A DNA stretch of 64,000 nt from Candidatus Marinacidobacterales bacterium (GTDB lineage: Bacteria; Acidobacteriota; Vicinamibacteria; Marinacidobacterales; SMYC01), in NCBI GenBank assembly GCA_965237955.1, contig OZ250169.1:704001-768000 (forward strand). The letters are read 5' to 3'. The position numbers and the translations under genes were made by a program. Shown in pieces: positions 5,895 through 54,506 of the stretch; the first letter of the stretch is position 1; the number at the start of each line of letters is the position of its first letter. Below the pieces are notes generated by a model. That model had not been told where the DNA came from and did not search any database. It saw nothing but the letters and a program-made list of their open reading frames with translations.

Positions 5895-5905
5895 GCACGA
5901 TCTCC

Positions 5906-7271: not shown

Positions 7272-7810
7272 CGTCCTGTGCCAAAACTCGGCCCCTTTGA
7301 AATAGGCCATAAATCAGCAGCTTAGTGTCTGTGTTTGCGACCGGGCCAAGGGCCGTGGGCTTTACAATCGTCTTGGGCGGGCGGGTCGTCACCATGCAGA
7401 TGACCACCACCTGCGCACAGCGGTAACCGAATACGTAGTGCACTATCACACAGAACGGAACCACCAAGGTCTCGGCAACGAGCTCATCACACCTCTGCCG
7501 GCAAGCGCGAATGACGCTGGCCCCATCGTGTCGCGAGAGCGACTTGGGGGCATTCTCAACTACTACTGCCGTGCCGCGTAGATTGTCGCCGGCGACGGTA
7601 GCCCCTCGGCGGGCTCGACCGGCGTAGCGTGGAAACCGCTTCAGGAACACGCTTCGATATTCGCTCTCGACTAGGTGGTCATCTGCATGGTGACGACCCG
7701 CCCGCCCAAGACGATTGTAAAGCCCACGGCCCTTGGCCCGGTCGCAAACACAGACACTAAGCTGCTGATTTATGGCCTATTTCAAAAGGGCCGAGTTTTG
7801 GCACAGGACG
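7272..7810. mobile_element. 539-bp mini-element with ~135-bp inverted repeats enclosing an integrase 3' end
   Basis: 7272-7408 is the near-perfect reverse complement of 7674-7810. The interior encodes ...[10 protein letters not shown]...[12 protein letters not shown]. Confidence 0.9.
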
Positions 7811-7883
7811 GCATCGCGGATCATGTCGTGCTTGGCAACGCACCGAGAGCTCGTATTCGCGGGGAGGTGAGAAACAGAAAATC

Positions 7884-8684
7884 TTACACTCCTCTTTTTG
7901 AGTTGGCATCGGCACCAGGGGCCGGTAGTCCCACCATTTTTCTGAGTGATGCGAGGTCTCCGGCGCAAATGTGCAGTGGCTCTATGCTCTCAAAGGAGCC
8001 AAAGTCAAAATCGGAGAACTGCAACCACTGGTCCATTCTGTTGTGTGCAGCAGCATACAGCATGACTCCGAAGCTTGTCGGCTTGGCCGTCGAATACAAA
8101 AACGAAGTTTTGCCGACAAGGTCACTATCCCATCTGTATTCGTTAAGCAATCCCTTCCGCCACAGCGCATTCAAATCAGTGTCTATCTTGATCCCATGAA
8201 CATCGACCAATTCTCTTAGTGACATCCAAATTGCTGTACTATTAACTTCTTGACCTTCAGCGACATTGATCGAGCGGCTCTGTTTTATCCACATTTTATT
8301 CAGAGTATGGTAGATGACGTAATGTAATGTGAGTTGTGTGGCTGATAGAGATTTGATCACATCAACGAATTGAATGGACGAGTCGTCCTTTCCGTCGTTG
8401 GTTCTCGAAGACGCCAGAATTCCACCAAAGTACTCAGCACAAACCTCGTCGTCGGAAAAGGTCCCATTCCAAAGTACGTCTCGAGTCACACGGAGGTTTG
8501 GGATTTTCCCGTCATCAATGTTTTCTATTTTCCGAGTCGCAGCCGCAAGAAGTTTGTTCCTTCCTGCCGCATACATCCGTTTAAGGTCTTCACCGAATTC
8601 AGACAGGACTGGCCCGAACAACTTCTTGATCGCCCATTCGCCCGGAATGGAGATTTCTAAATGCCCCTTGTCTAAATCACTCAT
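7884..8684 (-). CDS. Abi-alpha/DUF4393-like protein
   Basis: 266 aa, lower GC. KKLFGP...GEDL, DDEVCAEYFGGILASS and FVDVIKSLS pattern. Confidence 0.6.
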   Translation of the reverse strand: MSDLDKGHLEISIPGEWAIKKLFGPVLSEFGEDLKRMYAAGRNKLLAAATRKIENIDDGKIPNLRVTRDVLWNGTFSDDEVCAEYFGGILASSRTNDGKDDSSIQFVDVIKSLSATQLTLHYVIYHTLNKMWIKQSRSINVAEGQEVNSTAIWMSLRELVDVHGIKIDTDLNALWRKGLLNEYRWDSDLVGKTSFLYSTAKPTSFGVMLYAAAHNRMDQWLQFSDFDFGSFESIEPLHICAGDLASLRKMVGLPAPGADANSKRGV

Positions 8685-21611: not shown

Positions 21612-24600
21612 ATGTTTCTCGACAGTCGACTCTGGCGGTTCACCGAAGGGCTGCGCTGGCGCATTGCCGGCGCCGTATGCGTGGGCCTGCTGGCCGCCCT
21701 GGTGGGCATCGGCCGGCTGGCTTTGCTCGGCTGGCTCCTGGCCCAGGTGTTCGCCGGGGCGCCAGCGGAGTCGCTGATCCTGCCGGTGGCGCTGGTGGCA
21801 GTGGTCATGGGGCTTCGGGGCGTCCTCGAGTATTGGCGCAACATGATCGCCCACCGCACAGCGGCGCGCGTGCAGCTCGCTTTGCGCGAGCGCCTGTTCG
21901 ACAAGATCGTCGAGCTGGGTCCCGCCCATTTCGGCTTCGAGCGCACCGGCGACGTGCTGCTTGCCATGGTCGACGGGGTCGAGCAACTCGAAACCTACTT
22001 CGGCCAGTACTTGCCGCAGCTATTCGTCGCGGCGCTGACGCCGGTGATCGTCTTTGCGCTGATTGCGACCCTGGATCTCCCCGTGGCCCTGGTGATGTTC
22101 GGCTTCGCCCTGGTCACGCTCATCGCGCCGTCGGTCTTCCAGAAGTGGGACAGCAGCAACAGCCTGCGGCGCCAGAAGGCCTATGCGGCGTTCGCGGCAG
22201 AGTTTCTGGACGCAATTCAGGGCTTCGCCACCCTCAAGGCCTTCGGCCAGAGTGCCGCCCGCGCGAGGCTCCTGGCCCACAAGGCGCACGAGCTTTTTCG
22301 TGCCACCATGTGGGTGCTCGCCACCAATTCGCTTTCCCGTGGCATCGTCGATACGGGCCTCGCCGTGGGGGCGGCAGCGACCCTCGGCTACGGTGCCTAC
22401 CGCGTGAGCGCTGGAAGCACGAGCCTGGAGGTGCTGCTCATCGTCCTCATGATGGGAATCGAAGTTTACAGACCCCAGCGCGATCTGCGCGCACTGCTGC
22501 ACCAGGGCATGGTCGGATTGTCCTCGGCCAAGGGAATATTCGCGGTGCTGGATGCAAAGCCCGCGATTACTCCGCGCGACGACATCGTGGCGGCGGAGGA
22601 AGCCCTGGTGCCCACGGTCAGCTTCGATCACGTGAGCTTCGCTTACCCGGGTGGGCGGCGACAGGCCCACCAGGATCTGAGCTTCCACCTGGCCGCCGGG
22701 GAGCGCGTAGGAGTCGTGGGCGCGAGTGGTTCCGGCAAGTCGAGCATCGTGCGTCTTCTATCGCGCTTCTACGACCCGCAGAAGGGCACCGTGCGCATCG
22801 GCGGGCGCGATTTGCGGAATCTTCACCCGCGCGACATTCATCGCAACATCGCTGTCGTCAATCAGGATAATTATCTGTTCCACGGCAGCGTCGAAGAAAA
22901 TCTGCGATTCGGCAGACCCGACGCGAGCCAGGAAGAGCTGGAAGCGGCTGCGCGCGCCGCCAACGCCCACGGCTTCATCAGTCAGCTCCCCCAGGGCTAT
23001 CGGACTATCGTCGGCGAGCGTGGCATTCGGTTGTCCGGCGGGCAACGCCAGCGCGTCGCCATCGCCAGGGCGTTGTTGCGCGACGCGCCGATACTCGTTC
23101 TCGACGAGGCGCTCTCCGCCGTGGATGCGGAGAACGAGGCGATCATCCAGGAGGCCCTGGATCGGCTCATGCAGGGCCGCACGACGCTCATCTTCGCCCA
23201 TCGCCTGTCGAGCGTCATCGGTGCCGACAGGCTGCTGGTACTGGAGCAGGGGCGGCTTGTGGAGACTGGCAGCCACGCGAGTCTCATGAAAGCGGGCGGT
23301 GTTTATCACTCGCTGATGGCGGCCCAGGCCGCAGAGAGCGCCCGTGCCTACACCACGCTCGCCCTCGGCAGGCCGGCCGAGGATCGCGCGCCCGCCGCAC
23401 AAAGTGTCGACGAGGCGGAGAATGCGCACCTGGAGCCGACGGACGCCATCCTGCGTGCCGAGGGCATGGGTTGGCTTGACGCGTTCCGCGAGCTGTTTCG
23501 TCACGTGCAGCCATGGAAGGGCAAGCTGACAGTGGTGTTCTTTTTCGGTGTTACTCGCGTATTTGCATTGATCGGCGTCGGCGTCGTGAGCGCGCTGGTG
23601 GTGGCCGCGGTCAAAAACGACGCACCCTTCGATCATTACCTGGTAGTTCTTGCCGTGATAGCCCCATTCGCGGGCATTCTTCACTGGACGGAGTCCTGGC
23701 TCGCCCATGACATGGCTTTTCGCATGCTGGCGGAAATGCGCATCGCCCTGTTCGAGAAGCTCGACAAGCTGGCGCCGGCCTACCTGCTGCGGCGCCGCAC
23801 TGGCGACCTGGTCGCGATGGCGACCCATGACGTGGAGCTGGTGGAATACTTTTTTGCGCACACGGTGGCGCCGGCGCTGGTTGCGGTCCTCGTTCCCGCG
23901 CTCGTATTCGCAACACTGTCGTACTTCGGTTGGCCGATGGCGATCGCGCTGCTGCCGTTTGTGTTCATCGTCGCCCTGAGCCCCTTTTTCATGCGCGCCC
24001 GCATCGATACCCTGGGTTCCCGGGCCCGGGAGGCGCTCGCGGATCTCAATGCCCATGTGGTGGACACCATCCAGGGTCTCAACGAGATCATCGCCTTCGA
24101 GTACGTCGCGCGGCGCAAGGCCGAGATGGTTGCGCGTACCAATCGCAACCTGAGCCTGCGCGTACCGTTCTTCAGAGATCTCACCGTCCAGATGGCACTG
24201 CTGGAAGTGGCCACCGGCCTCGGTGGTCTCGCCATCGTCGTCACCGGCGCCCGGCTGGTGGCGGCCGGAGAGCTCGCCGCGGGCACGCTGCCGCTGCTCA
24301 CGTTGCTCGCCATGGCGGCATTCCTGCCGGTTTCCGAAATCGCCCACATCGGCCGTCAACTGGCCGATACCCTTGGTGCGACCCGCAGGCTGTACGCCGT
24401 GCACAACGAAAAGGTCGCGGTCGCCGACGGGCTCGGTGTAGCGCTTCCCGTCGTGCGCGGAGGCGCCTCTCTGGATTTCTCAGACGTGGATTTCTCGTAC
24501 TTCTCCAACCGTCGTCTGGCGCTCGAGGACGCGAGCTTTTCCGCGCCGGCGGGCAGCACGGTGGCACTCGTGGGATCTTCCGGCGCCGGTAAAACCACCG

Positions 24601-25205
24601 CCGCGCATCTACTTATGCGTTTTTTCGATCCCCAGAAGGGCGAGGTGCGCATGAACGGTGTGAGCTTGCGGGACTACAAGCTCGATGCGCTACGTGATCA
24701 AATCGCGCTAGTAACCCAGGATACCTATTTGTTCAACGAAACCCTGCGCGCGAATATCTTGCTGGCGCGCCCGGATGCGAGTGAAGAGGATATTCGCCAG
24801 GCGGTGGAGCGTGCGGCCCTTGCCGAGTTCGTCGATGCACTGCCAGAGGGTCTGGAAACCCGGGTCGGTGAGCGTGGAGTTCGCCTCTCTGGCGGACAAC
24901 GACAACGGGTAGCTATCGCGCGTGCGTTTCTCAAGGATGCGCCGATACTGATCCTGGATGAGGCCACGTCGCATCTGGACGCCGTGAACGAACAGGCGGT
25001 ACGCTGGGCTCTGGAAGAGCTCATGGCGAATCGCACCACCGTGGTCATCGCGCACCGCCTGTCGACCATTCGCAACGCCGGGCAAATCGTCGTCCTCGAC
25101 GCCGGCCACGTCGTCGAAACGGGCACGCACGACGAGCTCCTGTCCCGCCGCGGGTTGTACAGCCAGCTCGTTGGCCGGCAGCTCGCAAGCGCCGCGGCTG
25201 AGTAG
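21612..25205 (+). CDS. Fused double ABC transporter (TMD-NBD-TMD-NBD; CydDC/IrtAB-like)
   Basis: 1197 aa with two Walker A motifs (GASGSGKS, GSSGAGKT), two LSGGQRQR and two LDEA motifs. Confidence 0.9.
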   Translation: MFLDSRLWRFTEGLRWRIAGAVCVGLLAALVGIGRLALLGWLLAQVFAGAPAESLILPVALVAVVMGLRGVLEYWRNMIAHRTAARVQLALRERLFDKIVELGPAHFGFERTGDVLLAMVDGVEQLETYFGQYLPQLFVAALTPVIVFALIATLDLPVALVMFGFALVTLIAPSVFQKWDSSNSLRRQKAYAAFAAEFLDAIQGFATLKAFGQSAARARLLAHKAHELFRATMWVLATNSLSRGIVDTGLAVGAAATLGYGAYRVSAGSTSLEVLLIVLMMGIEVYRPQRDLRALLHQGMVGLSSAKGIFAVLDAKPAITPRDDIVAAEEALVPTVSFDHVSFAYPGGRRQAHQDLSFHLAAGERVGVVGASGSGKSSIVRLLSRFYDPQKGTVRIGGRDLRNLHPRDIHRNIAVVNQDNYLFHGSVEENLRFGRPDASQEELEAAARAANAHGFISQLPQGYRTIVGERGIRLSGGQRQRVAIARALLRDAPILVLDEALSAVDAENEAIIQEALDRLMQGRTTLIFAHRLSSVIGADRLLVLEQGRLVETGSHASLMKAGGVYHSLMAAQAAESARAYTTLALGRPAEDRAPAAQSVDEAENAHLEPTDAILRAEGMGWLDAFRELFRHVQPWKGKLTVVFFFGVTRVFALIGVGVVSALVVAAVKNDAPFDHYLVVLAVIAPFAGILHWTESWLAHDMAFRMLAEMRIALFEKLDKLAPAYLLRRRTGDLVAMATHDVELVEYFFAHTVAPALVAVLVPALVFATLSYFGWPMAIALLPFVFIVALSPFFMRARIDTLGSRAREALADLNAHVVDTIQGLNEIIAFEYVARRKAEMVARTNRNLSLRVPFFRDLTVQMALLEVATGLGGLAIVVTGARLVAAGELAAGTLPLLTLLAMAAFLPVSEIAHIGRQLADTLGATRRLYAVHNEKVAVADGLGVALPVVRGGASLDFSDVDFSYFSNRRLALEDASFSAPAGSTVALVGSSGAGKTTAAHLLMRFFDPQKGEVRMNGVSLRDYKLDALRDQIALVTQDTYLFNETLRANILLARPDASEEDIRQAVERAALAEFVDALPEGLETRVGERGVRLSGGQRQRVAIARAFLKDAPILILDEATSHLDAVNEQAVRWALEELMANRTTVVIAHRLSTIRNAGQIVVLDAGHVVETGTHDELLSRRGLYSQLVGRQLASAAAE

Positions 25206-28409: not shown

Positions 28410-28680
28410 CCCGGCAGACCGGAGACTAATCAAGTTCGGTGCGCGCGGATGAATAAATAGAAGGCACAACTCTGTTCTCCTCGAGCAAGTAGACCATAGC
28501 GGCCTGTTGGTCACGCTGAACCCAACCAGCGATGGCGACCACCAACAGTGTCAAGGGCTGGACCGGCGTGCTCATGACCGAGGATTCTAGCTCCCATCGG
28601 CCAACCAAGCGTAGACACGTCTATTCCGAAACGTCCCGGCGAGCCGGTCTTGAGTTCGTTTGTGTTTTTGGACACGACGA
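28410..28680 (-). mobile_element. Left end and N-terminus of an rve-integrase element, closed by another terminus
   Basis: CGTCGTGTCC end, ...AGWVQRDQQAAMVYLLEENRV, and a TGTGCCTTCTATTTATTCATCC end. Confidence 0.7.
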
Positions 28681-28707
28681 CGACGCGGGAACCATTCATG
28701 ATTTTAC

Positions 28708-28737
28708 TTGACCGACCGACTTAGTCGGACATATAAT
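28708..28737 (+). promoter_or_regulatory. Sigma70-type promoter with a palindrome in the spacer
   Basis: TTGACC-N18-TATAAT, with CCGAC-TTA-GTCGG at 28716-28728. Confidence 0.7.
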
Positions 28738-28746
28738 CCTCAAATT

Positions 28747-28765
28747 GATAATGACATTCAGTTTC
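28747..28765 (+). promoter_or_regulatory. Fur box
   Basis: GATAATGACATTCAGTTTC, a 15/19 match to GATAATGATAATCATTATC. Confidence 0.8.
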
Positions 28766-29021
28766 AATATTGCCAGTCGCTGCCAGAGGTCCCGGCCACA
28801 CACTTTAGAGAGACAGTCGCCTGTTACAAACGAACCGTGGAGAGGCTGATGAAGTGTTCTAATCCCTGAGGCAAAATAAGCGCTCGCCAGGTGTTGCCAC
28901 ACCCGGCGAGCTGCACGAACGCACGGTCCACAGACCTGATCACACGTAAATACGCGCGACAACGCTCGCCTCACTGCATTTTAGCGGCGAGAGAGTGTGG
29001 CGCGCAAGTAGGAGAAATGCC

Positions 29022-32000
29022 ATGACTTATATCGCTCGGCTTCTATTGTGCTCGACCCTCTTTCTCTCACCTGTCGGCTCGACACTCGCTGCGGCGGCTG
29101 ATGAGCAACTCGGCGTGTTGGTCGTGGCTCATGGCTCGACGGCGGCGTGGAACACCAACGTCGAGGCCGTGGTGACGATTATTCAACAACACATGCCATC
29201 TAAAGCGGCGTACCTGATGGGTGCGAAGAACCGCACACCGCAGGAGGCGTACGACGAACTGGTCGCGGCTGGTGTCCAGCGGATTGTCGTCGTGCCGCTC
29301 CTGGTGTCTTCCTACAGCCTGCACTACGAACAGGTCCGCTTCATTGGCCGCCTTCGCGACGATTACTCGGGCTCCGAACGGATGGAACTCACGCCGCTGC
29401 ACGGGCCTGCAGACGTTGTCGGCGTCACGCCGGCTCTTGATGCAGATCCGATCCTCGCTGGCATCTTGTCCGACCGGGCGCGTGCGCTCAGTCGTGACCC
29501 ATCCACGGAAAGCCTCGTCATCGTGGCGCACGGGCCGAACGGCGCCGCAGACGCAGACCGGTGGATGGACGTGATCCGAGAACTTGGTGTCCAAATACAG
29601 TCCCTCGTGCCGTTTAAGGAGGTCGATGTCCGCCTATTGCGGGACGATGCGCCCACACCGGTCAAAGACCAGGCGCTCGCGGAGCTCAGACACTCGGTGG
29701 CCAACCGTGCAGCGTCGGGGCGGGTCGTCGTCGTGCCGCTCCTGCTCGGGCCGGGACGCCTCGTCGACCAGATACCCAACGTACTCACTGGATTGGATTA
29801 CCTCTGGGACGGTCGACCCGTGCTCCCGGACAGCCGGATCGCTGACTGGGCCATGTCCCAGGTCGAGCGTGTATCGGCGCAGCAAGATGCAGCCAGCCGG
29901 CAGTCGACAGCTGATTTGCTGACTTTCTTGGATTCCGTGACCGTGACCGCGACGCTCCGGCCGGCGCCGGTACGGGAGATCCCCGGCATGGTGACGGTCG
30001 TCGACAGCGAGGTCATTCAGGCGAGGCTATTCGAGAACCTGTCTGATCTCGTCAAGTACGAACCCGGGGTGTACGTCGAAAACAATATGACCCGTCTTGG
30101 TCTCAACGGATTCAACATCCGCGGCATCGGAAGGAATCGCGTGATGACGCAGGTGGACGGCATTCAGACGTCGGAGCAGTTCGACTTCGGGCCGTTCAGC
30201 GTGCATCAGCTGGCGCTCGATCTCGATGCGTTGAAATCCGTCGAGATCGTGCGGAGTGCCAACTCGGCGCTCTACGGCAGCGATGCCCTCGGCGGCGTGG
30301 TCTCGCTGTTCACTAAGGATCCCGGCGACTACCTCCGCGGCCGGCGGTTCCATATCGGCGCCAAGACGACTTGGAATGGTCGCGCCGAGGATATCAGTGG
30401 GAACCTCACTCTGGCCGGGGGTACCGGACGGCTCCAAGCGTCGTTCTTCGCCAGCTTCAACCGCGGGAACGAGGTCCGTAATAAAGGGACGGTAAAAACC
30501 CGTGAGGCCACCCGTACCGCGGCGAATCCGCAAGACGTACGGGGCACCCAACTACTGGGCAAGCTCGTCTTCACAGCCTCGCCAGGCAATATGTGGCGCG
30601 TGGCAACGGAAGTCTACGATACCCGTGTCGAAACGACATGGTTCTCGGACATGGGATTGACGCAGCTCGGTCCGTTTCTTTACGACACTTTGGACTCGGT
30701 TGCTGTTGACACGCAGGGCCGCCAGCGCCTGTCGCTCGATCACACGCTAGTCGACCGCGCTGGTCTCGATCAGCTGTCATGGCGTATCTACGGCCAGCGC
30801 AACGACACATTTCAGGTCGTCGATCGTGAGCGCATGACGTTTGGCTTCGGGCCGCCGATTCATTCGACGCGCCGCGAAACGGTCGACTTCGAGCAGATTG
30901 GCTACGGCGGATCGGGTCGGGGTCAGAAGTGGCTGGGTGGTCCGAGTAACGGTGTGCTAGTCACGTTCGGCGCCAGCTACCAGACCGACACCTTCGACAT
31001 CCTGCGCGACCGGAGCGAGCTCAACGTTCGGACGGCGGCGCCCGTGCCGACCAGCCTGATCTTCCCGAACAAGTACTTCCCCGAGAGCGACGTCGCCGAG
31101 TCCGGTACGTACGTCCAGGCGGAGCTCCAGTTCGGCCGCGTCACGCTCGTGCCCGGGGTGCGCTACGATCACTTCTCGCTCGACGCCAACCAGAGCGACC
31201 CGATCTTCCTTGCAAGCCTGAACCCGGAGCCGACCGACTTCTCCTACAGCGCCATATCGCCGAAAGTTGGCGTGTCGGCGCGATTGACGGACGTGGTGAC
31301 CGTCCACGCGCAGTACGCCAGCGGATTCCGGGCGCCACCATACAGCGCCATCAACACCGGCTTCACGAACCCACAGGGAGGCTACGTCACGCTTCCAAAT
31401 CCCGAGCTCAGGGCGGAGACGAGCGACAACATCGAAGTCGGGGTGCGGACCGCGTTCGACCGCGCGAGCTTCGGCGTGACCGTCTTCTCGAACCGGTACG
31501 ACGACTTCATTGACCTGACGACGATCGGCTTCAATCCAAGAACCCGGCTGCTCGAATTCCAGAGCAGGAACCTCGAAAAGGCCGAGATCAAGGGTGTCGA
31601 GCTGCGCGGCGAGGCGTACGTGACCGACCGCGTGATGATTCGCGGGAGCTACGCGAGAATCGACGGCGTTGAGATCTCGAAGGACGCTGCGGTCCCGCCG
31701 CTCGCGGCCGAGACGCCGCTTGGTTCCATCGCGCCGAACGAAGGCGTGCTCGGTATCCAGTACCTCCAACCCTCCGGCCGTTGGGGTGCGGAGCTGTCCG
31801 TCAGGCTGGTCGAGTCGTACCAGGGTGCCCCTGATGAAAACCAGTTCACGCCGGACGCCTACCAGGTCGTCGACCTGGTGAGCCACGTCTCGCTCGCGGA
31901 GGCCCTCACGTTTCGTCTTGGCCTGCTCAACCTGACGGATGCGACGTACTTCGAGTGGTGGAACGTGCGGGGACGCCAGGCGAACGACCCGGTGATCGAT

Positions 32001-32054
32001 CGGTATTCGAGCCCGGGGATTAGTGTCATCGGGTCACTGGCGTACGACTGGTAG
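29022..32054 (+). CDS. Heme/hemoglobin-type TonB-dependent receptor with N-terminal CbiX/SirB-like domains
   Basis: AGGAG RBS and signal peptide; VAHGS, VVVPLL..H and VAHGP modules; TonB box DSVTVTAT; plug SALYGSDALGGVV; FRAP and NPEL motifs; terminal W. Confidence 0.9.
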   Translation: MTYIARLLLCSTLFLSPVGSTLAAAADEQLGVLVVAHGSTAAWNTNVEAVVTIIQQHMPSKAAYLMGAKNRTPQEAYDELVAAGVQRIVVVPLLVSSYSLHYEQVRFIGRLRDDYSGSERMELTPLHGPADVVGVTPALDADPILAGILSDRARALSRDPSTESLVIVAHGPNGAADADRWMDVIRELGVQIQSLVPFKEVDVRLLRDDAPTPVKDQALAELRHSVANRAASGRVVVVPLLLGPGRLVDQIPNVLTGLDYLWDGRPVLPDSRIADWAMSQVERVSAQQDAASRQSTADLLTFLDSVTVTATLRPAPVREIPGMVTVVDSEVIQARLFENLSDLVKYEPGVYVENNMTRLGLNGFNIRGIGRNRVMTQVDGIQTSEQFDFGPFSVHQLALDLDALKSVEIVRSANSALYGSDALGGVVSLFTKDPGDYLRGRRFHIGAKTTWNGRAEDISGNLTLAGGTGRLQASFFASFNRGNEVRNKGTVKTREATRTAANPQDVRGTQLLGKLVFTASPGNMWRVATEVYDTRVETTWFSDMGLTQLGPFLYDTLDSVAVDTQGRQRLSLDHTLVDRAGLDQLSWRIYGQRNDTFQVVDRERMTFGFGPPIHSTRRETVDFEQIGYGGSGRGQKWLGGPSNGVLVTFGASYQTDTFDILRDRSELNVRTAAPVPTSLIFPNKYFPESDVAESGTYVQAELQFGRVTLVPGVRYDHFSLDANQSDPIFLASLNPEPTDFSYSAISPKVGVSARLTDVVTVHAQYASGFRAPPYSAINTGFTNPQGGYVTLPNPELRAETSDNIEVGVRTAFDRASFGVTVFSNRYDDFIDLTTIGFNPRTRLLEFQSRNLEKAEIKGVELRGEAYVTDRVMIRGSYARIDGVEISKDAAVPPLAAETPLGSIAPNEGVLGIQYLQPSGRWGAELSVRLVESYQGAPDENQFTPDAYQVVDLVSHVSLAEALTFRLGLLNLTDATYFEWWNVRGRQANDPVIDRYSSPGISVIGSLAYDW

Positions 32055-32091
32055 CCGCGACTGACGAGAGCCAAAGTGAAAGGGGACACGC

Positions 32092-32280
32092 ATGCATCGC
32101 CATCACGAATCGGAGACGCTAGCCAGCGGTTCTCAACACTCAAGCCGGAATCTGGCCAACACTATGGCGAGTCGAGGGGAGCTGGATGCGGCATCGGACC
32201 TTTTTCAATCGGTTCTTTCCGAGCAACCGGATCACCAACGCGCCAAAACGAACCTGATGGCGATACTCGAGGCTAAGTAA
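32092..32280 (+). pseudogene. Possible TPR-like remnant
   Basis: NLANTMASRGELDAA..LF..VL...PDH..AKTNL pattern. Confidence 0.4.
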
Positions 32281-32328
32281 GGCAGTGCCCGGGGCATGCC
32301 GTAGGCATGACATTCAAGGAGACCCAAA

Positions 32329-33954
32329 TTGGGTATACCCACAACGTTAAGAGCGCTCATCATCGTTGTCGCGTTGTTAGGCCTAGGCTTACCGACTGCT
32401 ACGGCTGGCACCCGCACGGCGTTTCTAGTGATCGCACCCGATCGTGGCTTTCTCGGTAACGAGGAAGTCCGCGAAGTTTTTGCGGACTTCGCGACCTCTG
32501 TCGATGACGCACAACTAGCGTTCGTCACGCAAGAGCGGGCTGAGGAGAACCTACGCAACGTTTGGAAGTCTCTCCCAACGGAAGGGCAGATCGCGAGGGT
32601 GGTGGTCCTGCCCCTTTTTTTGTCCAAGCACGACGCGCTCTACAAGAAGGCTCAAGGGGTACTCGACGCTTTCGGAGGACCGCTTGTTTCCTTCGGCATT
32701 CCACTGGGAGCAAGCTACCTGGCGGAGGAGATCCTCTTTGACCGCGTCGAAGCTCTCGCCTCCTCGCATGTCGGCAACGAGCAGCTCGTCGTGATAACGG
32801 CGGGCGCTAACTCCAGCACTGCAGAGTCCGGTATCCGGGAGGACCTCGAACCGCTGGTGGATCGCGCGGCCAAGAAGTACGGCCTAGCAGGCGGCCGCCT
32901 CTACGTCATCCATGACGGTGCCGAGACCGAGGAGGCTCGCAGCGCATCCATCGAGGGAATGATGAAGGATCTGGAATCCGTCTGCACCGGCGAGGAACGT
33001 ACCCTGGTCGTCCCGTTCAGCCTCGGGATGAAATACACGACCATGATGTCGGAGTGGAGCTACCTGAAAAGAAGAATGCGTGAATTCTCCGGTATCGTGT
33101 CCGACGGACGGGGGGTGTTGCCGCACGCGAACGTCGGCCACTGGCTGCAAAAAAGCGTGAACCACGCCCTGCCGCTCGACCGAGAGGACATCGGCGTCAT
33201 CCTGGTGCCGCACGGCAGTGATTACAATTGGAACGAGACCATGCGTCGCGGAATCTCCCCTATTCGTGACGAGTATGTAACTGAGGATGCCTTTAGCATG
33301 GTCGACCCTCTGCTCATCGAGAACGCGGTGCGAAAACTCGAGGCACGGGGAGTTCGGGCGGCGTTGGTGGTGCGCATATTCTTCATGGAGTCCAGTTTTC
33401 GAACCAAGGCGGAATACGTGCTGGGTCTGAGGCCCGATTATCGCAGTTTTCCGCGAAGGGTCCGTAGCGGCCTTGTCTTCCATACCGCGGGAGGTGTAGC
33501 TGCTAGCCAGCACCTCGCTCGGGCACTCGTCGATCGGGTCGACGAGATCAGTACCGCCCCCAACCGAGAGACCATCGTGTTGGTCGGGCATGGAAGCGGC
33601 AACGACAAGGTCAACGACCGCTGGCTCGAACTGCTCGCGAGCTTGGCGCGGGATATCGGCGAGCGCTGGGACGGTTTCCGAGCGATCCGCTACCACACCT
33701 GGAGGGAAGACTGGCCCGATAAGCGGCGGGACGCGGTGGCGGCCATTCGTGCTGATGTGGAGGCTGCGTCCAAAGACGACGGCATTGCCCTCGTTCTCCC
33801 GATACGCACGACAGGTCAGGGCCCGGCCACGCGTTACCTCGATGGTCTGAAGTATCGGTACGGGACTGGATTTGCCCCGCATCCAGAGTTCACCGCCTGG
33901 CTACAATCGGTCATCGAACAAGGACTGTTGAAGCTCACCGGAGACCCGCGGTGA
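32329..33954 (+). CDS. Exported protein with repeated CbiX/SirB-like modules
   Basis: AAGGAG RBS and signal peptide; VVVLPLFLS, VPHGS and VGHGS motifs; APHP..W module ends. Confidence 0.75.
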   Translation: MGIPTTLRALIIVVALLGLGLPTATAGTRTAFLVIAPDRGFLGNEEVREVFADFATSVDDAQLAFVTQERAEENLRNVWKSLPTEGQIARVVVLPLFLSKHDALYKKAQGVLDAFGGPLVSFGIPLGASYLAEEILFDRVEALASSHVGNEQLVVITAGANSSTAESGIREDLEPLVDRAAKKYGLAGGRLYVIHDGAETEEARSASIEGMMKDLESVCTGEERTLVVPFSLGMKYTTMMSEWSYLKRRMREFSGIVSDGRGVLPHANVGHWLQKSVNHALPLDREDIGVILVPHGSDYNWNETMRRGISPIRDEYVTEDAFSMVDPLLIENAVRKLEARGVRAALVVRIFFMESSFRTKAEYVLGLRPDYRSFPRRVRSGLVFHTAGGVAASQHLARALVDRVDEISTAPNRETIVLVGHGSGNDKVNDRWLELLASLARDIGERWDGFRAIRYHTWREDWPDKRRDAVAAIRADVEAASKDDGIALVLPIRTTGQGPATRYLDGLKYRYGTGFAPHPEFTAWLQSVIEQGLLKLTGDPR

Positions 33955-34378
33955 TACGGAGGAATAACTTCTTGGAACCAGCGACTGGCCGTGAGGGCAA
34001 AATACTCTTGCGGCTTCCAGATGGTAGAAACGTAGCACCCCGTCCTGTGCCAAAACTCAGCCCTTTTGAAATAGGCCATAAATCAGCAGCTTAGTGTCTG
34101 TGTTTGCAACCGGGCGAAGGCGTCGTGTCCAAAAGCACGAACGAACTCACCACGTCGGGCCTTTAGGAAGGTGCAAACTGCTGACCCGCTGGGCGTTCGA
34201 ATATTTGGACCAGACGCATTCAGACGGTAGTGGTCTAGTTTGGGATTCGACCCAAGAACCATCCGACAACGACACCAAGCAGCGGAATCAGTCCAAGGCA
34301 GAGCTTCCGGTAAAATTCTCTCCTCTCACGCCTTAACTCGGCCTCTAACTCTAGGTGTTCAGAAGGCGTTCTTCCGGG

Positions 34379-35724
34379 TGTCCTTCATCATTATTGATCC
34401 AGCGGGAATGGTACCGCTGGTGGCCCTACGACGAACGAAGAAACCCGGGTCGGCGCGCGCGGGCACTTGCCGAGATCACGCGATCAATGGGCCGCGGAGC
34501 TGGACAACGCAATCGCGAGGGACCCCAGCAATCGACGCGCAGCGACTAAACTGGCTCAGGCGGCGTCGCGCCATTCGTAGCGGTGGTGGAGCCCACCCAC
34601 TCGCGGCAACGCGACGACTTTTGCGGTCGGTGATGGTCGGGGCGTGACGGGTCTTGAGTTCGGGGTGTCTTTGTCGAGACCCAAGTGGCAACGGTCCTCG
34701 TGGTAGTAGCTGATGTACAAGCGCATGAGCCGGACGAGATGCCGCTCACTGAGGACAACTACATGCTCTAACATCTCGCGGCGGCAGTTTCCGATCCAGC
34801 GTTCGGCGGTACCGTTTTGCCAAGGGCTGCGATAAGAAATGCGAACAGGCTTTGTGCCCATGGCCCTGATGAACTCCACCACTGCAGGGCTGAAAATCGC
34901 GTCGCGGTCAAAGACCAAGTATCGTGGTGCCGTGTCGTATGGGAACGCCTCGCGCAGTTGTTGAATCACCCACGCTGACGTGGGGTTGTACGTCGCGTTG
35001 AAGTGCAAGATATGGCGACGGCCGTGCTCGATGACGAAGAAGCCGTACAGCAGCCGTAGCGACGCCGTCGGTACGGCGAACAGATCCATCGCGGCGATGT
35101 CGTCCTTGTGGTTCCGCAAGAACGCAATCCATCGCTTCACTTCGTCGGGTTCGGCTCGGCGGTGCGGCATGTATCGCGACACCGTCATCTCGCTGACAAC
35201 GAATCCGAGCTTCGTCAGCTCAGCGTGGATACGAGGTGCACCCCAGCCGTCTTGGGCCATCGTGCGGACGAGACGACGAATCTCGGCATCAATCCGAGGT
35301 CGACCTGGATAGCGCGGACGGGAGATCCGAGCCCAGTATCGGCGGAACCGATCTCGATTCCACCGGGCGACCGTGTCGGCGTTCACGATAACGAGCCGGC
35401 TCGCCCACGCTGGCCACGAGCTTCGGAGCGCAACCCAGAATGCTCGGTCCGTGTCCTCGAGCGGTGGCCGGGGGCGCTCCTTCTTCAACGCCGTAACTTG
35501 CTGCCGCAGGGCCAGGTTTTCAATCACGAGGTCGGCTCGGCGCCGACACATCGCCCGGATCGCACGGGCGCCGAGTGAGACGAGGAAGATGAGGACACGG
35601 AGCATGGCGGCAGAGTTTGCCGTCTCAAGACCGGGATCTCAAGCGGGAGATGCGCTCGTTGGCCGAGGCGTGAACGGTGCGTAAGTCCTTGATTTCAGGA
35701 GCGGACGGATATTGATGATGCACA
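34379..35724 (-). mobile_element. 1,346-bp rve-integrase element, copy 3; CDS 34556-35605
   Basis: Near-identical to copies 1 and 2. Confidence 0.9.
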
Positions 35725-36281
35725 GGTACGAAGAACTCGTGCTCGTCCGGGTCTCTCCATGCCACCGTCTCGGAGAAACCCTTAGCGATGAGCTTTTCCG
35801 CTTCCTCCTCGAAGCGGTCCGATAGCCGTTTCAGAAAGAGCAGACCGAAGATGTAGGTTTTGTAGTCGCTGCTGTCGATGGAGCCGCGCAGGATGTCTGC
35901 GGCGGACCAGAGATACTGCTCGAGCTGCGCGACGCTCAGCTCTTCACTCCGCGGTTCTGGCGCCTCTGCCACGGAACGGGTTGGCGCGGGCACGTTCCCG
36001 GTGTTGTTCTTCGACGCAGCGGCCGGTCGGATAAGACGGGCTACGAGATCCTCCTTTTTCCTGCCGGAATCATCGAGGTCGAACGTTCGACACAGCTCCT
36101 TCAGGCGCTCTCTAGAGAGGTCTTGCAGAATCTCATAGAGCCGCGCCTTCCGCGAGCGGGCAAGCGTATCAACGAGTTGCGGCTTGACGCGGCGATCCGC
36201 AACCGCCAGCTCATAGAAGTCGATGCTGGCGCGCAGCTCGTTCGCTGTCAGCTCGGCGAGAATTGCGTGTTTTGTTGGCAT
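35725..36281 (-). pseudogene. hsdM: Type I methyltransferase N-terminal fragment with an extra helical N-domain
   Basis: LEQYLWSAADILRGSIDSSDYKTYIFGLLFLKRLSD, truncated by the IS. Confidence 0.85.
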
Positions 36282-36607
36282 CTCCGTATCACTCGTGGAT
36301 CCACTTGCCGTGGTGGCAGCCGGAGTGGTCTTAGCCAGCGTGATCCTCGTCAGTGCTCGTGGGAGGCTACCACGAGGGCGCGCTGTGGTTTTCGGAAATT
36401 CTAGCCACCTGAGTTTTTGTCTCAGAATCGAGGACTTCGTCAAGTCTGCACTGGTAATTGTGATGAGTAGCCGCCGCCACACTCGTCTGCCCGGCCCCCC
36501 CGTGACGACGAGATCGGCTACGGCAAACCTCTGGTCTGCCATAGTTCTCTGAACAGAGCGCGGCACATTCTCAACCGAAGCCCGTCGTGTCCGGGGTATC
36601 TCAGACA

Positions 36608-37692
36608 GGCATTGTTGCACCGCTCTGGCTGAGAGCAAAATGCGCCTCTTGTGGTGGCCGAGGTATGTTCGACCATGAAGTATCCCAAGCGCTGCCAGTA
36701 CAAGCACGCGAAGCAGAAGAAGTACCACGTTCGCAACTGGGCGGAATACAACGAAGGGCTGCGCCGCCGGGGCGATTTGACAGTCTGGTTTGACGAGGAG
36801 GCAATCGCGAACTGGAAGGCCGACAAGACCGGTAAGCCTGGCGGTCAACGGGTCTATTCAGACATGGCTATTGAAACGGGCCTGGTTGTCCGGATGGTGT
36901 ACAAGCTCGCCTACCGACAAACCGAAGGCTTCTTGCACTCGATCGCCTCGCTGCTCGGGCTCGGTATCGAGATCCCGGACTACTCGACGTTGTCTCGGCG
37001 GTCGAGGCTGCTCCGCAAGAAGCTGCGGATTCCGAAAGCCGCAAGCAATCAACCAACCCACCTGATGATCGATAGCACGGGCTTGAGGATTCATGTTGGA
37101 ACCGCCCGCAAACCGCCAAAGCAGCGCGCATGGCGCAAGTTGCACATCGCCGTTGATCGCGAGACCGGCAACATTGTTGCGTCCGAACTGACGGCGTCAC
37201 GTGCTCGCGACGCAACCCGAGTCCCCGCTTTGCTAACACAGATTCAAGCACCTCTAGCGTCCGTGGCGGCGGACAGTGCATACGACAAGGAAGCGGTCTA
37301 CGAAGCGATCGAAGCGCACAGCCCTGGACGAAGGACGCGCGTGGTGATTCCGCCGCAACGAAACGCGACGCTCAATCAGAATTCGAACACCGCCATGCAG
37401 GAGCGCGACCGCCATATTCGTGCCATCGAAAGACACGGCCGACGTGAATGGTACAAGCTCTCAGGCTGCACCAAGCGAAGCATGGTGGAGAACGCGGTCT
37501 ATCGTTACAAAGCGATCATCGGGCCCGAGATGCGGACACGAACGTTGGCGAGGCAACGAGTTGAACACCGAATTGGGTGCGAGATACTCAACAAGATGAC
37601 CGCGCTCGGGATGCCCGATACGTACTGCGCCGGGTGACTCTACGACCGGCACAGGGAGGTCAGCGATTTGCTCCGGGCCGTGCAACAACGCC
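36608..37692 (+). mobile_element. IS903-like element, complete; CDS 36651-37637
   Basis: Slightly diverged copy of 10408-11492. Confidence 0.92.
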
Positions 37693-50290: not shown

Positions 50291-50594
50291 GGCATCCCGT
50301 TGCTGGACGGTGTTTCCCCTGCGCGTACGGGGAACCCGAATCGCCGACATCGCCTCCGAAACGCCCCAGATCTGGGGCTCGCCACGGGGCGATGACCATC
50401 GAAACGGCCCGGCGCGCCAGTCTTGAGTTCGTTTGTGTTTTTGGACAGGACGGGTCGACATTCGAGAGCCGCGGCCGTTTCACCGAACGGCGGAGCACGG
50501 CGAGCTGCTGCCGAAGAGCGACATTCTCGAGAGCCAGCTCGCGACGAGCAGCACCCGCCTTCTGTAATTTGGTGCTGATATCATGGCCGGAGCA

Positions 50595-53045
50595 ATGGAC
50601 AAGAAAAGCCTCAGTGAACGTGACATCTGCACCAAGTTCATCACACCGGCCTTGCGCCAAGCCGGGTGGGACGAGATGGCGCAGATCCGGGAGGAGGTCA
50701 GCTTCACCAAGGGCCGCATCATCGTGCGCGGCAAGCTGGTCAGCCGGGGAAAGGGCAAGCGGGCCGACTACATCCTTTATTACAAGCCCAACATTCCCAT
50801 CGCCCTGATCGAGGCCAAGGACAACACCCACGCCACCGGCGACGGGATGCAGCAGGGGCTGGACTACGCCGAGACCCTGAATATCCCCTTCGTGTTTTCC
50901 TCCAACGGCGACGGCTTCGTCTTCCACGACCGGACGGGAGCAGGCGCCGAGCGGGAAACGACCCTCGGTCTTGACGCCTTCCCGCCGCCCGACGACCTGT
51001 GGGCGCGCTATCGCGCCTGGAAGGGGCTGACGCCCGAGGCCGAATCCATCGTCCTGCAGGACTATTTCGACGATGGCGGCGACAAGGCCCCGCGCTACTA
51101 CCAGGTCAACGCCATCAACGCCGCCATCGAGGCTATCGCCAAAGGTAACGAACGTATCCTGCTGGTCATGGCGACCGGTACTGGCAAGACCTATACCGCT
51201 TTTCAAATCATCTGGCGGCTATGGAAGGCGGGCCGCAAGAAGCGCATCCTGTTTCTGGCAGATCGCAACGTGTTGGTCGACCAGACGATGGTCAACGACT
51301 TCCGGCCTTTCGGCGCGGCGATGGCGAAGCTCTCGACAAAAGCAAAGACCATCGAACGAGCGGACGGCACTTCCGAAGACCTGACCAGCGCCATCGACGC
51401 AAGACGGCGCATCGACCCCGCCTATGAAATCTATCTCAGCCTCTATCAGGCGATCACCGGACCGGAAGAACATCAGAAGATTTTCCGTGAGTTCTCGCCC
51501 GGATTCTTCGACCTCATTGTGATCGACGAGTGCCATCGCGGCAGCGCCGCCGATGATTCGGCCTGGCGGGAGATTCTGGAGTACTTTTCGTCAGCCACCC
51601 AAATCGGCCTCACCGCCACACCCAAGGAAACCCGCTACGTTTCCAACATCCACTACTTCGGCGAGCCGGTGTACACCTATTCCCTGAAGGAGGGTATCCG
51701 CGACGGTTTTCTGGCACCCTACAAGGTCGTCAAGATCCATGTTGATCGCGACGTGGAGGGCTATCGTCCCGAAAAGGGGCAGCTTGACCGCAATGGCGAG
51801 GAGGTCGAGGACCGCATCTACAACGTCAAGGACTTCGACCGCACGCTGGTCCTAGATGAGCGGACCAAGCTCGTGGCCCGAAAGGTCACGGCGTTCTTGA
51901 AGGAAAGTGGAGACCGTTTTCAGAAAGCGATCGTTTTCTGTGTCGACCAGGAACATGCTGCTCGCGTGCGCCAGGCACTCATCAACGAAAACGCCGACCT
52001 GGTGGAAAAGAACCACCGCTACGTCATGCGCATCACCGGCGCCGACCTTGAGGGGCAGAAGCAACTCAGCAACTTCATCGACCCGGAATCCAGATACCCC
52101 GTGTTGGTCACCACATCACAGCTGCTATCGACCGGTGTCGATGTGCAGACTTGCCGGCTCATCGTGCTGGACCGCGAGGTCGGCTCCATGACCGAGTTCA
52201 AGCAGATCATCGGGCGCGGGACGCGCGTGCATGAGGATACCCGCAAGTTCTACTTCACCTTGATGGATTTTAGGGGCGCGACCACCCATTTCGCGGACCC
52301 GGATTTCGACGGCGAACCGGTGCAAATATACGAACCCGGCGATGACGACCCTATCCTGCCGCCCGAAGATACTTCGCCCAACGGCGACAGCGATGACCCC
52401 ATACCGCCGGAACCGGGCGATGACGAAACCGGTGTTGACGAACCGCCCGACATCATCGTGCCGAATACCGATGGTAGTGTGCGCAAGGTCTATGTGGATG
52501 GTGTCGCCGCGGCCATCGTCGCCGAACGGGTGGAATATCTCGATGAGAACGGCAAGCTCGTCACCGAATCCCTGCGCGACTTCACAAAAAAGGCGCTGAG
52601 GAAGCGCTTCGCCAGCCTCGACGATTTCTTGAAGCGCTGGAAAGCCGCCGAACGCAAGCAGGCGATTGTCGAGGAGCTGGAGGCCGAGGGCTTGCCGCTC
52701 GACATCATCGCCTTGGAATTGGGCAAGGACCTCGACCCCTTCGACCTCATTTGCCATGTCGCCTTCGATGCCAAGCCACTGACCCGGCGCGAGCGGGCCG
52801 ACAACGTCAAGAAGCGGGGCGTGTTCAACAAGTACGGAGACCAGGCCCGCGCTGTGCTCGACGCGTTGCTCGCCAAGTACGCCGACGAAGGTGTGTTCAA
52901 CCTCGACGACATAACCGTGCTGCGCATCCCACCCTTCACCCAACTCGGCACGCCGGTGCAGTTGGTCGAGGTCTTCGGCGGGAGAGCGGGTTTCATCGAG
53001 GCCGTCCACGAGCTTCAATCGGCCCTTTATCGGGAGACTGCTTAG
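50595..53045 (+). CDS. hsdR: Type I restriction subunit R (EcoEI-like)
   Basis: ADY..IEAK, MATGTGKT, DECH, TATP and QIIGRGTR motifs. Confidence 0.95.
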   Translation: MDKKSLSERDICTKFITPALRQAGWDEMAQIREEVSFTKGRIIVRGKLVSRGKGKRADYILYYKPNIPIALIEAKDNTHATGDGMQQGLDYAETLNIPFVFSSNGDGFVFHDRTGAGAERETTLGLDAFPPPDDLWARYRAWKGLTPEAESIVLQDYFDDGGDKAPRYYQVNAINAAIEAIAKGNERILLVMATGTGKTYTAFQIIWRLWKAGRKKRILFLADRNVLVDQTMVNDFRPFGAAMAKLSTKAKTIERADGTSEDLTSAIDARRRIDPAYEIYLSLYQAITGPEEHQKIFREFSPGFFDLIVIDECHRGSAADDSAWREILEYFSSATQIGLTATPKETRYVSNIHYFGEPVYTYSLKEGIRDGFLAPYKVVKIHVDRDVEGYRPEKGQLDRNGEEVEDRIYNVKDFDRTLVLDERTKLVARKVTAFLKESGDRFQKAIVFCVDQEHAARVRQALINENADLVEKNHRYVMRITGADLEGQKQLSNFIDPESRYPVLVTTSQLLSTGVDVQTCRLIVLDREVGSMTEFKQIIGRGTRVHEDTRKFYFTLMDFRGATTHFADPDFDGEPVQIYEPGDDDPILPPEDTSPNGDSDDPIPPEPGDDETGVDEPPDIIVPNTDGSVRKVYVDGVAAAIVAERVEYLDENGKLVTESLRDFTKKALRKRFASLDDFLKRWKAAERKQAIVEELEAEGLPLDIIALELGKDLDPFDLICHVAFDAKPLTRRERADNVKKRGVFNKYGDQARAVLDALLAKYADEGVFNLDDITVLRIPPFTQLGTPVQLVEVFGGRAGFIEAVHELQSALYRETA

Positions 53046-53048
53046 CCC

Positions 53049-54506
53049 ATGTCCGTCCGTACCCTTGTCAAATCCATCCAGAACATCATGCGCCAGGACA
53101 CCGGCGTTGATGGCGACGCCCAGCGCATCAGCCAGTTGTGCTGGATGTTCTTCCTCAAGATCATCGGTGATCAAGACCAGGAACTAGGATTGATGCGGCC
53201 CGGCTACGCCTCGCCGATACCCAAGCGCTACCAATGGCGCGCTTGGGCGGCGGACCCCGAGGGCATCACCGGTGAAGAACTGCTTGCCTTCATCAACGAC
53301 GACCTGTTCCCGGCCTTTAAGAACCTCCGGATGACCGGGCATCTCGGCGACCGACGCCGCGTCGTACGCGCCGTGTTCGAGGATGCCCACAACTACATGA
53401 AATCCGGTCAGTTGATGCGCCAGGTGGTCAACAAGATCAACGGCGTCGACTTCAACAACCTGACCGAACGCCAGCATTTCGGCGACATCTACGAGCAGAT
53501 TCTCAACGACCTGCAATCGGCGGGCAACGCTGGCGAGTACTATACGCCCCGCGCCGTCACCGCCTTCATGGTCGACCGCATCGACCCGAAGCTTGGCGAG
53601 AGCTTGCTCGATCCCGCCTGCGGCACCGGAGGGTTCCTCACCTGTTCGCTGCGTCACATGCGCGAGCGTTACGTCAAGCGGCCCGAGGATGAGCAGAACA
53701 TGCAGGCGGCGTTGCGCGCGGTGGAGAAAAAGCAGCTTCCGCACATGCTCTGCGTCACCAACATGCTGCTGCACGGCATCGAGGACCCGAGCTTCGTCCG
53801 CCACGACAACACCCTAGCCCGTCCCTATATCAGCTGGGAGCGGAAGGACCGGGTGGACATCGTGCTTACCAATCCACCCTTTGGCGGCAAGGAGGAGGAC
53901 GGCATCGAGTCGAATTTCCCGCAACATTTCCGCACGCGGGAGACGGCAGACCTGTTTCTCGCTCTCATCATTCGCTTGTTGAAGCCGAATGGTCGCGCCG
54001 CCGTGGTGCTGCCCGACGGCTCGCTATTTGGCGAGGGCGTCAAGACACGCCTCAAGGAACACTTGATGGAGGAATGCAACCTCCACACCATCGTCCGGCT
54101 GCCCAACTCCGTGTTCCGGCCCTATGCTTCCATCGGCACCAACCTGCTGTTCTTTGAGAAGGGCGAACCGACCGTGGATATCTGGTTCTACGAGCACTTG
54201 GTGCCCGAGGGCCAGAAGGCCTACTCCATGACCCGGCCGATCCGGCTGGAGCATTTGCAAGGCTGTATAGACTGGTGGGGTGGGGCGAAGCGCGAGGGTC
54301 GGAAGGAGACGGAGCGCGCCTGGAAGGTGACGGTCGACGAGGTCAAGACGCGAAACTACAACCTCGATATCAAGAACCCGCACACGGAGGACGACGACCA
54401 CGGCGACCCCGAGGAACTGCTGAAGGAACTGACTGCTGCCGAGGCTGAAACGGGATACTTACGCGACCGCTTGAAGGCGATCCTGGCCGAGGCGCTCATG
54501 CGATGA
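53049..54506 (+). CDS. hsdM: Type I methyltransferase subunit M
   Basis: GEYYTP, DPACGTGG and NPPF motifs. Confidence 0.95.
   Translation: MSVRTLVKSIQNIMRQDTGVDGDAQRISQLCWMFFLKIIGDQDQELGLMRPGYASPIPKRYQWRAWAADPEGITGEELLAFINDDLFPAFKNLRMTGHLGDRRRVVRAVFEDAHNYMKSGQLMRQVVNKINGVDFNNLTERQHFGDIYEQILNDLQSAGNAGEYYTPRAVTAFMVDRIDPKLGESLLDPACGTGGFLTCSLRHMRERYVKRPEDEQNMQAALRAVEKKQLPHMLCVTNMLLHGIEDPSFVRHDNTLARPYISWERKDRVDIVLTNPPFGGKEEDGIESNFPQHFRTRETADLFLALIIRLLKPNGRAAVVLPDGSLFGEGVKTRLKEHLMEECNLHTIVRLPNSVFRPYASIGTNLLFFEKGEPTVDIWFYEHLVPEGQKAYSMTRPIRLEHLQGCIDWWGGAKREGRKETERAWKVTVDEVKTRNYNLDIKNPHTEDDDHGDPEELLKELTAAEAETGYLRDRLKAILAEALMR

Follow-up and report, generated by a model that had tools for sequence, protein, structure and literature searches.

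This work concerns a gene for a putative heme receptor with a chelatase-like domain at its N-terminus, which lies in a 64,000-nucleotide stretch of contig OZ250169.1 of a Candidatus Marinacidobacterales bacterium (the whole stretch is called the window, and positions are those of the window). A single open frame on the forward strand, 29022-32054, encodes 1010 amino acids (aa) counted from an ATG with AGGAGA 6 nt on its 5' side, and an alternative GTG start at 28995 would give 1019 aa. On the 1010-aa protein Pfam places CbiX in two stretches (residues 27-284, E 8.6e-11), a plug at 317-426 and a barrel at 560-971. AHG motifs hold H37 and H170, DSVTVTA runs from residue 304, FRAP lies at 769 and NPEL at 793, and the chelatase-type insert between the signal peptide and the TonB box is about 260 aa long. 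We take DSVTVTA to be TonB-box-like; TonB box, plug and beta-barrel are then all present, as in TonB-dependent receptors. The first-pass annotation, made from the letters alone, had described AHG-containing CbiX/SirB-like modules between signal peptide and TonB box in one open frame, and the frame, Pfam, the motifs and an independent contig all confirm this. That contig, from run X3, covers 28671-33885 with 37 substitutions and no gaps, and since it spans the region in one piece the fusion is not an assembly artefact. Contigs from four runs in four studies cover the gene, and among them only one indel is listed, three bases inserted in frame within the signal peptide.

The AlphaFold model of residues 27-290 has a predicted local distance difference test score (pLDDT) of 96.9, and as modelled the domain has the class II chelatase fold, two alpha/beta modules around a cleft, so that structure prediction upholds the chelatase assignment. 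The best structural match is SirB of B. subtilis (PDB 5ZT7; Z 22.2, root-mean-square deviation, rmsd, 2.5 A over 234 residues, template modelling score, TM, 0.70), which both Foldseek and VIA rank first, followed by ferrochelatases, CbiK-P, CbiX, CbiK and FetB. In a wide fold search class II chelatases and proteins structurally akin to them filled the top 11 rows (Z 22.2 to 11.1), and the next row had Z 9.7. A sequence search of the PDB with the domain alone gave no significant match (best E 0.69), and a profile search of PDB sequences matched CfbA at no better than E 1e-4. The full-length model is poor, with pLDDT below 50 for model residues 265-412 (linker and plug) and a predicted TM score of 0.52, and is uninformative on docking.

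The metal in SirB is bound by H10, E43 and H76, and the other module carries R134 and L200 (PMC11301274). By motif position, not by superposed coordinates, the five equivalents are H37, M66, H101, H170 and R246. On these equivalences the domain appears to have histidines on both modules and Met in place of Glu; it resembles SirB and long CbiX in keeping counterparts of H10 and H76 in module 1, and differs from SirB in the exchanges of Glu43 for Met and Arg134 for His and in being predicted to be exported. Histidines on both modules are also found in CfbA/CbiXS and in the SirB R134H variant, whose added His has been proposed as an acid-base residue and whose layout the three histidines of the domain resemble (PMC11301274); active-site layouts of class II chelatases were compared also with PMC4063343 and PMC11568245. 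Conservation over 128 aligned rows is high for H37 (127), M66 (127), H170 (128), R207 (123), D208 (127) and D209 (128), with H101 in 109. Among 187 domain matches from 135 more distant representatives, counting only the rows that have a residue, H37 is kept in 123/134, M66 in 87/138 (Glu in 25), H101 in 54/141, H170 in 134/149 and D209 in 115/133. The conserved core thus reads as His37, Met66, His170 and Arg-Asp-Asp, which differs from the His-Glu-His triad of SirB. H37 and H101 of that triad are present, with Met at the Glu position in all aligned rows except one, and the two C-terminal histidines of CbiK are represented by H170 only, the second position being Arg246 or variable. Because neither the SirB triad nor the CbiK pair was found, we file the domain under the class II chelatase fold, in neither the SirB/CbiX-L nor the CbiK family. 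A cytoplasmic SirB/CbiX-L is also at odds with the signal-like N-terminus and the fusion to a receptor, and a crude test found a hydrophobic stretch ahead of the domain in 121 of 127 relatives. The ratio of nonsynonymous to synonymous divergence (dN/dS) in six diverged pairs is 0.17-0.36 for the domain and about 0.17-0.22 for the receptor, which points to purifying selection on the domain.

The segment between the signal peptide and the TonB box of TonB receptors is periplasmic. From this topology, with which the first-pass placement of the extension agrees, the chelatase-fold domain is likely to be periplasmic as well.

The receptor part passes TIGR01786 (342.1 against a cut-off of 323.75, for the 1010-aa protein) and, narrowly, TIGR01785 (317.6 against 316.85). 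Its closest solved relative is PhuR of P. aeruginosa (PDB 8THE) with E 1e-84, the runner-up having E 7e-21, and plug and barrel align with PhuR over about 700 residues. H124 and Y529 of PhuR are kept as H395 and Y788, and Y519 is not kept (Asn778); a 13-residue offset in the deposited chain was used for this matching. Y529 is the heme-iron ligand in the PhuR structure (PMC10418163). Of 119 close receptors, 111 show the plug His and 110 the loop Tyr in a pattern search. The receptor is accordingly classed, by profile and alignment, as a TonB-dependent heme/hemoglobin receptor of PhuR-like type, for which heme transport is predicted, and the earlier reading of FRAP and NPEL as marks of a heme receptor is borne out. 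Vitamin B12 or siroheme as cargo of the PhuR-like fused receptor was rejected with TIGR01779 (96.8 against a cut-off of 599.7). PhuR itself lacks an N-terminal chelatase domain. It works with PhuT, PhuUV, PhuS and a heme oxygenase, counterparts of which were not identified beside the fused gene.

Table 1. Features of the fused gene and its surroundings (positions in the window)
Feature	Position	Strand	Remarks
Signal peptide, residues 1-26	29022..29099	+	Predicted from sequence: basic residues first, then a hydrophobic core and an Ala-rich end
Two-module class II chelatase-fold domain, residues 27-284	29100..29873	+	Module 1: H37, M66-G67, H101; module 2: H170-G171, R207-D208-D209
Short linker, residues 285-303	29874..29930	+	Matches the N-terminus of mature, unfused PhuR-like receptors (P0175, E 2.7e-15)
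TonB-box-like DSVTVTA, residues 304-310	29931..29951	+	Motif reading
Plug domain, residues 317-426, including H395	29970..30299	+	Pfam; H395 aligned to PhuR H124
PhuR-like beta-barrel, including stop codon	30318..32054	+	FRAP 769, Y788 (aligned to PhuR Y529), NPEL 793
Sigma-70-type promoter-like site TTGACC-18-TATAAT (11/12)	28708..28737	+	Counts only through its position beside the Fur-like box
Fur-like box, 15/19 consensus matches	28747..28765	+	Just 3' of the -10 element; E. coli consensus
Single-copy cassette	28680..33980	.	Between high-copy repeats, ends about 28679 and 34037-34120; nearly unchanged in other genera
Second cassette gene, 541 aa, predicted exported paralog (P0002)	32329..33954	+	Two tandem chelatase-like units

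Upstream of the gene a promoter-like pattern (one found against a chance expectation of 1.3) precedes a Fur-like box, scored against what we take to be the E. coli consensus. Only five sites with at least 15/19 matches occur in the 8.1-Mb genome, this one ties for best, and another of the five stands directly before feoAB in the same promoter-plus-box layout. The genome has a Fur gene, and from these sites the fused gene is predicted to be iron-repressed via Fur. A consensus search at 3 mismatches gave no match, the site having 4, and upstream of about half of 33 loci, including L046, L051 and L052, the Fur-like score was no better than in shuffles. Rfam gave no riboswitch or other match in the nine related loci to which the scan was applied in place of the window itself, among them L038, which is 99% identical to the window over the cassette. 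This result, the Fur-like box and a separate B12-type uptake operon make the siroheme or corrinoid cargo considered in the first-pass annotation unlikely.

The source genome, which is 98% complete, has HemB, HemH (ferrochelatase), Fur and FeoB/feoAB. Family searches found no HemS, heme oxygenase, ChuX/HutX, CobN/HmuS (PF02514) or DyP in it, and only matches far below cut-off for HutZ and HutW; the sole ABM protein looks by eye like a quinol monooxygenase, not IsdG. A heme ABC importer was not found in the genome either. There are two PBP2 matches, one with an internal stop and one in an operon of a receptor and an ATP-binding cassette (ABC) system that ends in a cobalamin adenosyltransferase. 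At L117:7420-13086 (G000:C1, about 5.27 Mb) a TonB receptor, a binding protein, an ATPase, a permease and a PduO-type adenosyltransferase stand in a row, likely for B12 uptake.

Free-standing relatives of the domain have a TonB receptor directly upstream in 30 of 61 loci, and HmuY also in 16; 12 of the 61 hold less than 2.5 kb upstream, and kin share layouts, so that these counts are not independent. Eight of 61 relative genomes have this PhuR-like receptor, and all eight have a family frame, adjacent to it in G009 and fused to it in the other seven, some of which are broken. Across the loci scanned there is no recurrent heme ABC importer. Neighbours seen at single loci are ferritin, DtxR, Fur, FTR1 and multicopper oxidase. 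An FTR1 match lies 3' of the fused receptor in L051 (L051:10610-11869), and genes for a DtxR-type repressor and ferritin are divergent from the 1035-aa fused receptor at L051:6669-7672 and L052:6683-7715, where Fur-like scores did not exceed those of shuffles. At L056:8887-10422 and L057:8785-10447 the receptor-chelatase pair is followed by a small multicopper oxidase (scanned in L056) and a cupin. Also found repeatedly beside the fused receptor are a gene for a protein of about 200 aa and one of the ComEA-like helix-hairpin-helix type (L044:10984-12278, L045:10987-12513, L036:6221-7341).

The fusion is not unique to this assembly, as a search of domain architectures and the contigs from other studies make clear. 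With residues 27-290 as query, 51 matches were found among proteins of 555-1768 aa, the window's own cluster included, and all 51 combine CbiX with a plug, 47 of them also with a barrel. The length filter favours fusions and says nothing on whether fusion is the commonest state; the same query gave 175 matches among shorter proteins, and the whole chelatase-fold family comprises 877 clusters at 50% identity. The 51 fusions fall into three receptor classes: 20 are PhuR-like, 15 have about 911 aa, and 16 have about 1035 aa and a CarboxypepD-like domain. Both of the latter classes are about 30% identical to the PhuR-like fused receptor and pass no cut-off of the five NCBIfam models tested. As unrelated receptors are used, with an interposed domain in one class, the fusions suggest that tethering matters more than a specific interface. 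Of 351 genomes from the class, a family member is present in 82, and 14 contain a frame of 927-1082 codons with at least 55% identity. In a set of 14 close loci, 10 are intact and 4 broken. The nearest named loci belong to Ca. Marinacidobacterales and Vicinamibacterales (Acidobacteriota, Vicinamibacteria).

The short linker, since it matches the mature N-terminus of unfused PhuR-like receptors, appears to mark the fusion junction, and the junction of P0013 keeps an apparent first strand of the CarboxypepD-like domain that Pfam does not detect. A tree of the domain (63 of 128 rows) unites the 10 PhuR-fused rows in one clade (support 100) amid the other fused classes. For the 15 fused rows in the receptor tree (75 of 119 rows) a minimum of 5 changes is required, and starred branches force 4 of these. 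Synonymous divergence (dS) at locus L046 is 0.31 in the domain and 0.83 in the receptor. The simplest reading of the trees is that a PhuR-like receptor acquired the 5' half of a chelatase-receptor fusion and that exchange of receptor halves is still going on; repeated loss of the domain, instead of repeated exchange, is a possible alternative. P0338, P0308 and P0323 form a second fusion lineage with receptors from a different part of the family, two of these fusions being joined to PhuR-like receptors at 53-54% identity; P0281 is assigned to this lineage as well. A single origin for all fusions was rejected (p-AU 6e-5; 59 rows, quick tree, one free row having been added to the constrained group after the tree was seen), and fusion evidently arose more than once on this phylogeny. 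Other relatives (P0352, P0373, P0390, P0283, P0284, P0296, P0301) are joined to S-layer, dockerin, copper-amine-oxidase N-terminal or FmdE domains; Glu replaces Met in three members of the S-layer/FmdE-type group, which is possibly a surface metal-handling branch. P0317 has the domain in one frame with an FTR1 iron-permease part, where an internal signal-like stretch suggests two adjacent genes run together, P0307 and P0333 have it with DUF3386, and L110:7857-9701 with a molybdopterin-binding domain.

The fused gene forms a cassette with a paralog, whose C-terminal unit keeps the equivalents of H37, M66, H170, R207 and D209 without H101, whose N-terminal unit lacks both histidines, and for which a PDB sequence search gave no match. 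Window positions 28671-34120 recur at 99% identity in two places of genome G018, about 82 kb apart (G018:C1:8352351 and 8434858), and G021 has two broken copies (G021:C2:21002 and 213489). Identity over the receptor part reaches 98.6-99.7% for G008 and G015 and 93-96% for G021 and G033, while recA of G018, G008, G015, G021 and G033 is only 78-82% identical to that of the source genome; since the cassette is 93-99.7% identical at such recA distances, the 5.4-kb cassette must have been transferred between genera recently. The bounding repeats, 34037-34120 and 28627-28679, have from about 100 to more than 400 matches each in the genome. A defined composite transposon is not supported: the 36-nt inverted repeat around the cassette consists of high-copy repeat ends, and the flanks differ between genomes.

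Exported class II chelatases beside TonB receptors were already known as separate genes (PMC12094164, PMC13227078). The Iht system of P. gingivalis encodes IhtA together with the CbiK-like lipoprotein IhtB/FetB, an exported protein of the same fold, which has been proposed to take iron from heme (PMC12094164), and FetB (PDB 9B86) matches the domain with Z 17.9 and an rmsd of 3.1 A over 220 residues. IhtB is, unlike our domain, a separate surface-exposed CbiK-type lipoprotein served by an ABC system of its own; our SirB/CbiX-like domain is part of the receptor chain, on its periplasmic side. CbiK-P of Desulfovibrio (PDB 2XVX) is a periplasmic class II chelatase of the same fold (Z 18.7), but a free protein with the active site in its C-terminal domain and no receptor fusion; it is said to bind heme and to be oligomeric. 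The claim that no characterised receptor has this architecture stands in so far as no title or abstract on a chelatase-TonB receptor fusion was found among the papers listed in searches of open-access literature, but it had missed the separate-gene pairing of IhtA with IhtB/FetB. The pairing of an exported class II chelatase with a TonB receptor is thus not new, and what is found here is the fusion in one protein.

A third comparison is with hmuYRS, as the free relatives form hmuY-receptor-chelatase runs in the 16 loci mentioned; standing 3' of the receptor, they take the third place, which HmuS holds in Bacteroidota (PMC12094164, PMC12583661). HmuS frees Fe(II) from heme, is depicted ahead of FeoB, and has a heme bound through Met-Gly and His-Gly (PMC12583661). 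Met-Gly and His-Gly motifs are present in the domain, but HmuS was absent from the 50 rows of the wide fold search with the domain model. HmuS is a 1450-aa, six-domain, membrane-bound and NADH-dependent relative of the class I chelatases CobN/ChlH, as against the 264-aa domain here.

The reading we prefer, at a probability of roughly 0.45, is that of an iron-repressed PhuR-like importer whose tethered domain would capture heme in the periplasm and then release its iron for uptake by FeoAB. Iron shortage would lift Fur repression; Y788 would bind heme on the outside, and TonB energy would pull it through the barrel; the tethered domain would then clamp the heme in its cleft between H170 and, on the opposite face, H37 or M66. 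Up to this point the steps are together quite probable. H170, backed by D208 and D209, could next protonate the ring as Fe(II) passes to H37, M66 and H101, a reversal of the class II chelatase reaction, and Fe(II) would enter via FeoAB. Heme as the cargo follows from PhuR as best solved relative and the kept Y788 and H395, iron would be needed more than porphyrin in a genome with HemB and HemH, and no other heme-iron route was found in the genome. Capture and demetallation, two roles suggested in the first pass, are both plausible, and the third, re-metallation, is unlikely in view of the Fur-like box. A wider picture, possible though we hold it more loosely, would be a one-protein iron-from-heme machine: a TonB receptor with its own periplasmic class II dechelatase, belonging to a wide exported Met/His family that in Acidobacteriota and Gemmatimonadota does the work of HmuS or heme oxygenase, has joined receptors more than once and spreads between genera as a mobile cassette.

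Several observations weigh against iron release, which is the weakest step, as it would probably depend on ferrous heme, for which no reductant was found. Neither a reductase nor a porphyrin exporter is recurrent among the loci scanned, and 31 of the 61 free-standing loci have no receptor upstream. H101, the metal-entry His, is present in just 54/141 distant matches and is Val in the second fusion lineage, and the PhuR-fused lineage has lost a His-rich loop of the other fused classes (H117 and H120 in 26/26 rows against 0/10). Heme might be taken inward unnoticed by ABC systems for peptides or B12, and heme-degrading enzymes of novel families would escape family searches. FetB, the nearest tested exported class II chelatase, had no reverse activity with hemin in vitro and inserted Co and Mn (PMC13065792), and HmuS needs NADH and dechelates at a separate site, its Met/His-ligated heme being assigned as non-substrate (PMC12583661), which favours plain binding for a Met/His site.

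The main rival is heme capture alone, in which a non-catalytic His/Met or bis-His module would pull heme from the barrel, buffer it and pass it intact to an inner-membrane carrier or to periplasmic hemoproteins, replacing PhuT/HmuT. It fits that the most conserved residues are the two histidines after the first strand of each module and the Met at the Glu43 position of SirB, that H101 is dispensable family-wide, that HmuS holds its non-substrate heme through Met79-Gly80 and His254-Gly between class II-like domains (PMC12583661), and that FetB lacked reverse activity (PMC13065792). Still we consider it less likely than iron release, given that no recurring heme ABC importer and no cytoplasmic heme-degrading enzyme were found, the latter in a genome that makes its own heme; the Met/His parallel is also an analogy only, with HmuS missing from the fold search rows.

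A chaperone whose ligand is free periplasmic Fe, Co, Ni or Zn, not a tetrapyrrole, and which hands the metal to a permease of the inner membrane would accord with the His-rich loops of many relatives, the relative that shares a frame with an FTR1 permease part and the fusions to FmdE and S-layer anchors. It is improbable for the present protein, whose PhuR-fused lineage lost the loop yet is under purifying selection on a heme-type receptor, and the S-layer/FmdE group is a separate clade with Glu instead of Met. Insertion of Co, Mn or Fe into imported metal-free porphyrin, a forward reaction like that of FetB with Co and Mn (PMC13065792), would agree with the kept counterparts of SirB H10 and H76 (H37 and H101), but we judge it very improbable because the predicted iron-starvation control and the heme-iron ligand of the receptor fit a gain of iron, and the genome has its own ferrochelatase. 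The least likely of all is a passenger domain, captured by recombination in genomes rich in insertion sequences and doing little for the receptor. Among the best 120 matches unfused receptors at 70-79% identity do far outnumber the fused ones, and 4 of the 14 close loci are broken, but the dN/dS of the domain (about 0.2-0.3) is near that of the receptor, fusion arose more than once independently, and 8/8 of the receptor-bearing genomes among the 61 relatives have the chelatase-family frame fused or adjacent.

Only recently was it settled, for HmuS, how bacteria without heme oxygenases extract iron from heme, and what the exported class II chelatases IhtB/FetB do is still disputed. The fusion physically ties a large family to heme import on the periplasmic side, and with a soluble domain of 260 aa and five candidate residues the question becomes directly testable. 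To our knowledge TonB receptors carry either signalling or carboxypeptidase-like domains as periplasmic extensions, and a catalytic one would, if true, be a new receptor design.

The window abounds in insertion sequences. A gene at 21612-25205 (+) encodes a fused ABC transporter of 1197 aa, MsbA/CydDC-like with two membrane and two ATPase domains, which was rejected as a partner of the fused receptor: it lies 3.8 kb upstream, with insertion sequences between, and is absent from related loci. Fic-domain, HTH-IrrE/M78 peptidase and Abi-alpha genes at 3436-8684 (-) suggest a defence or mobile island, an EcoEI-like type I restriction-modification trio lies at 50583-56188 (+), and a separate hsdM N-terminal fragment at 35625-36848 (-) runs into an insertion sequence. 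A TonB-receptor barrel frame without a plug match, probably truncated, is found at 60712-62331 (+).

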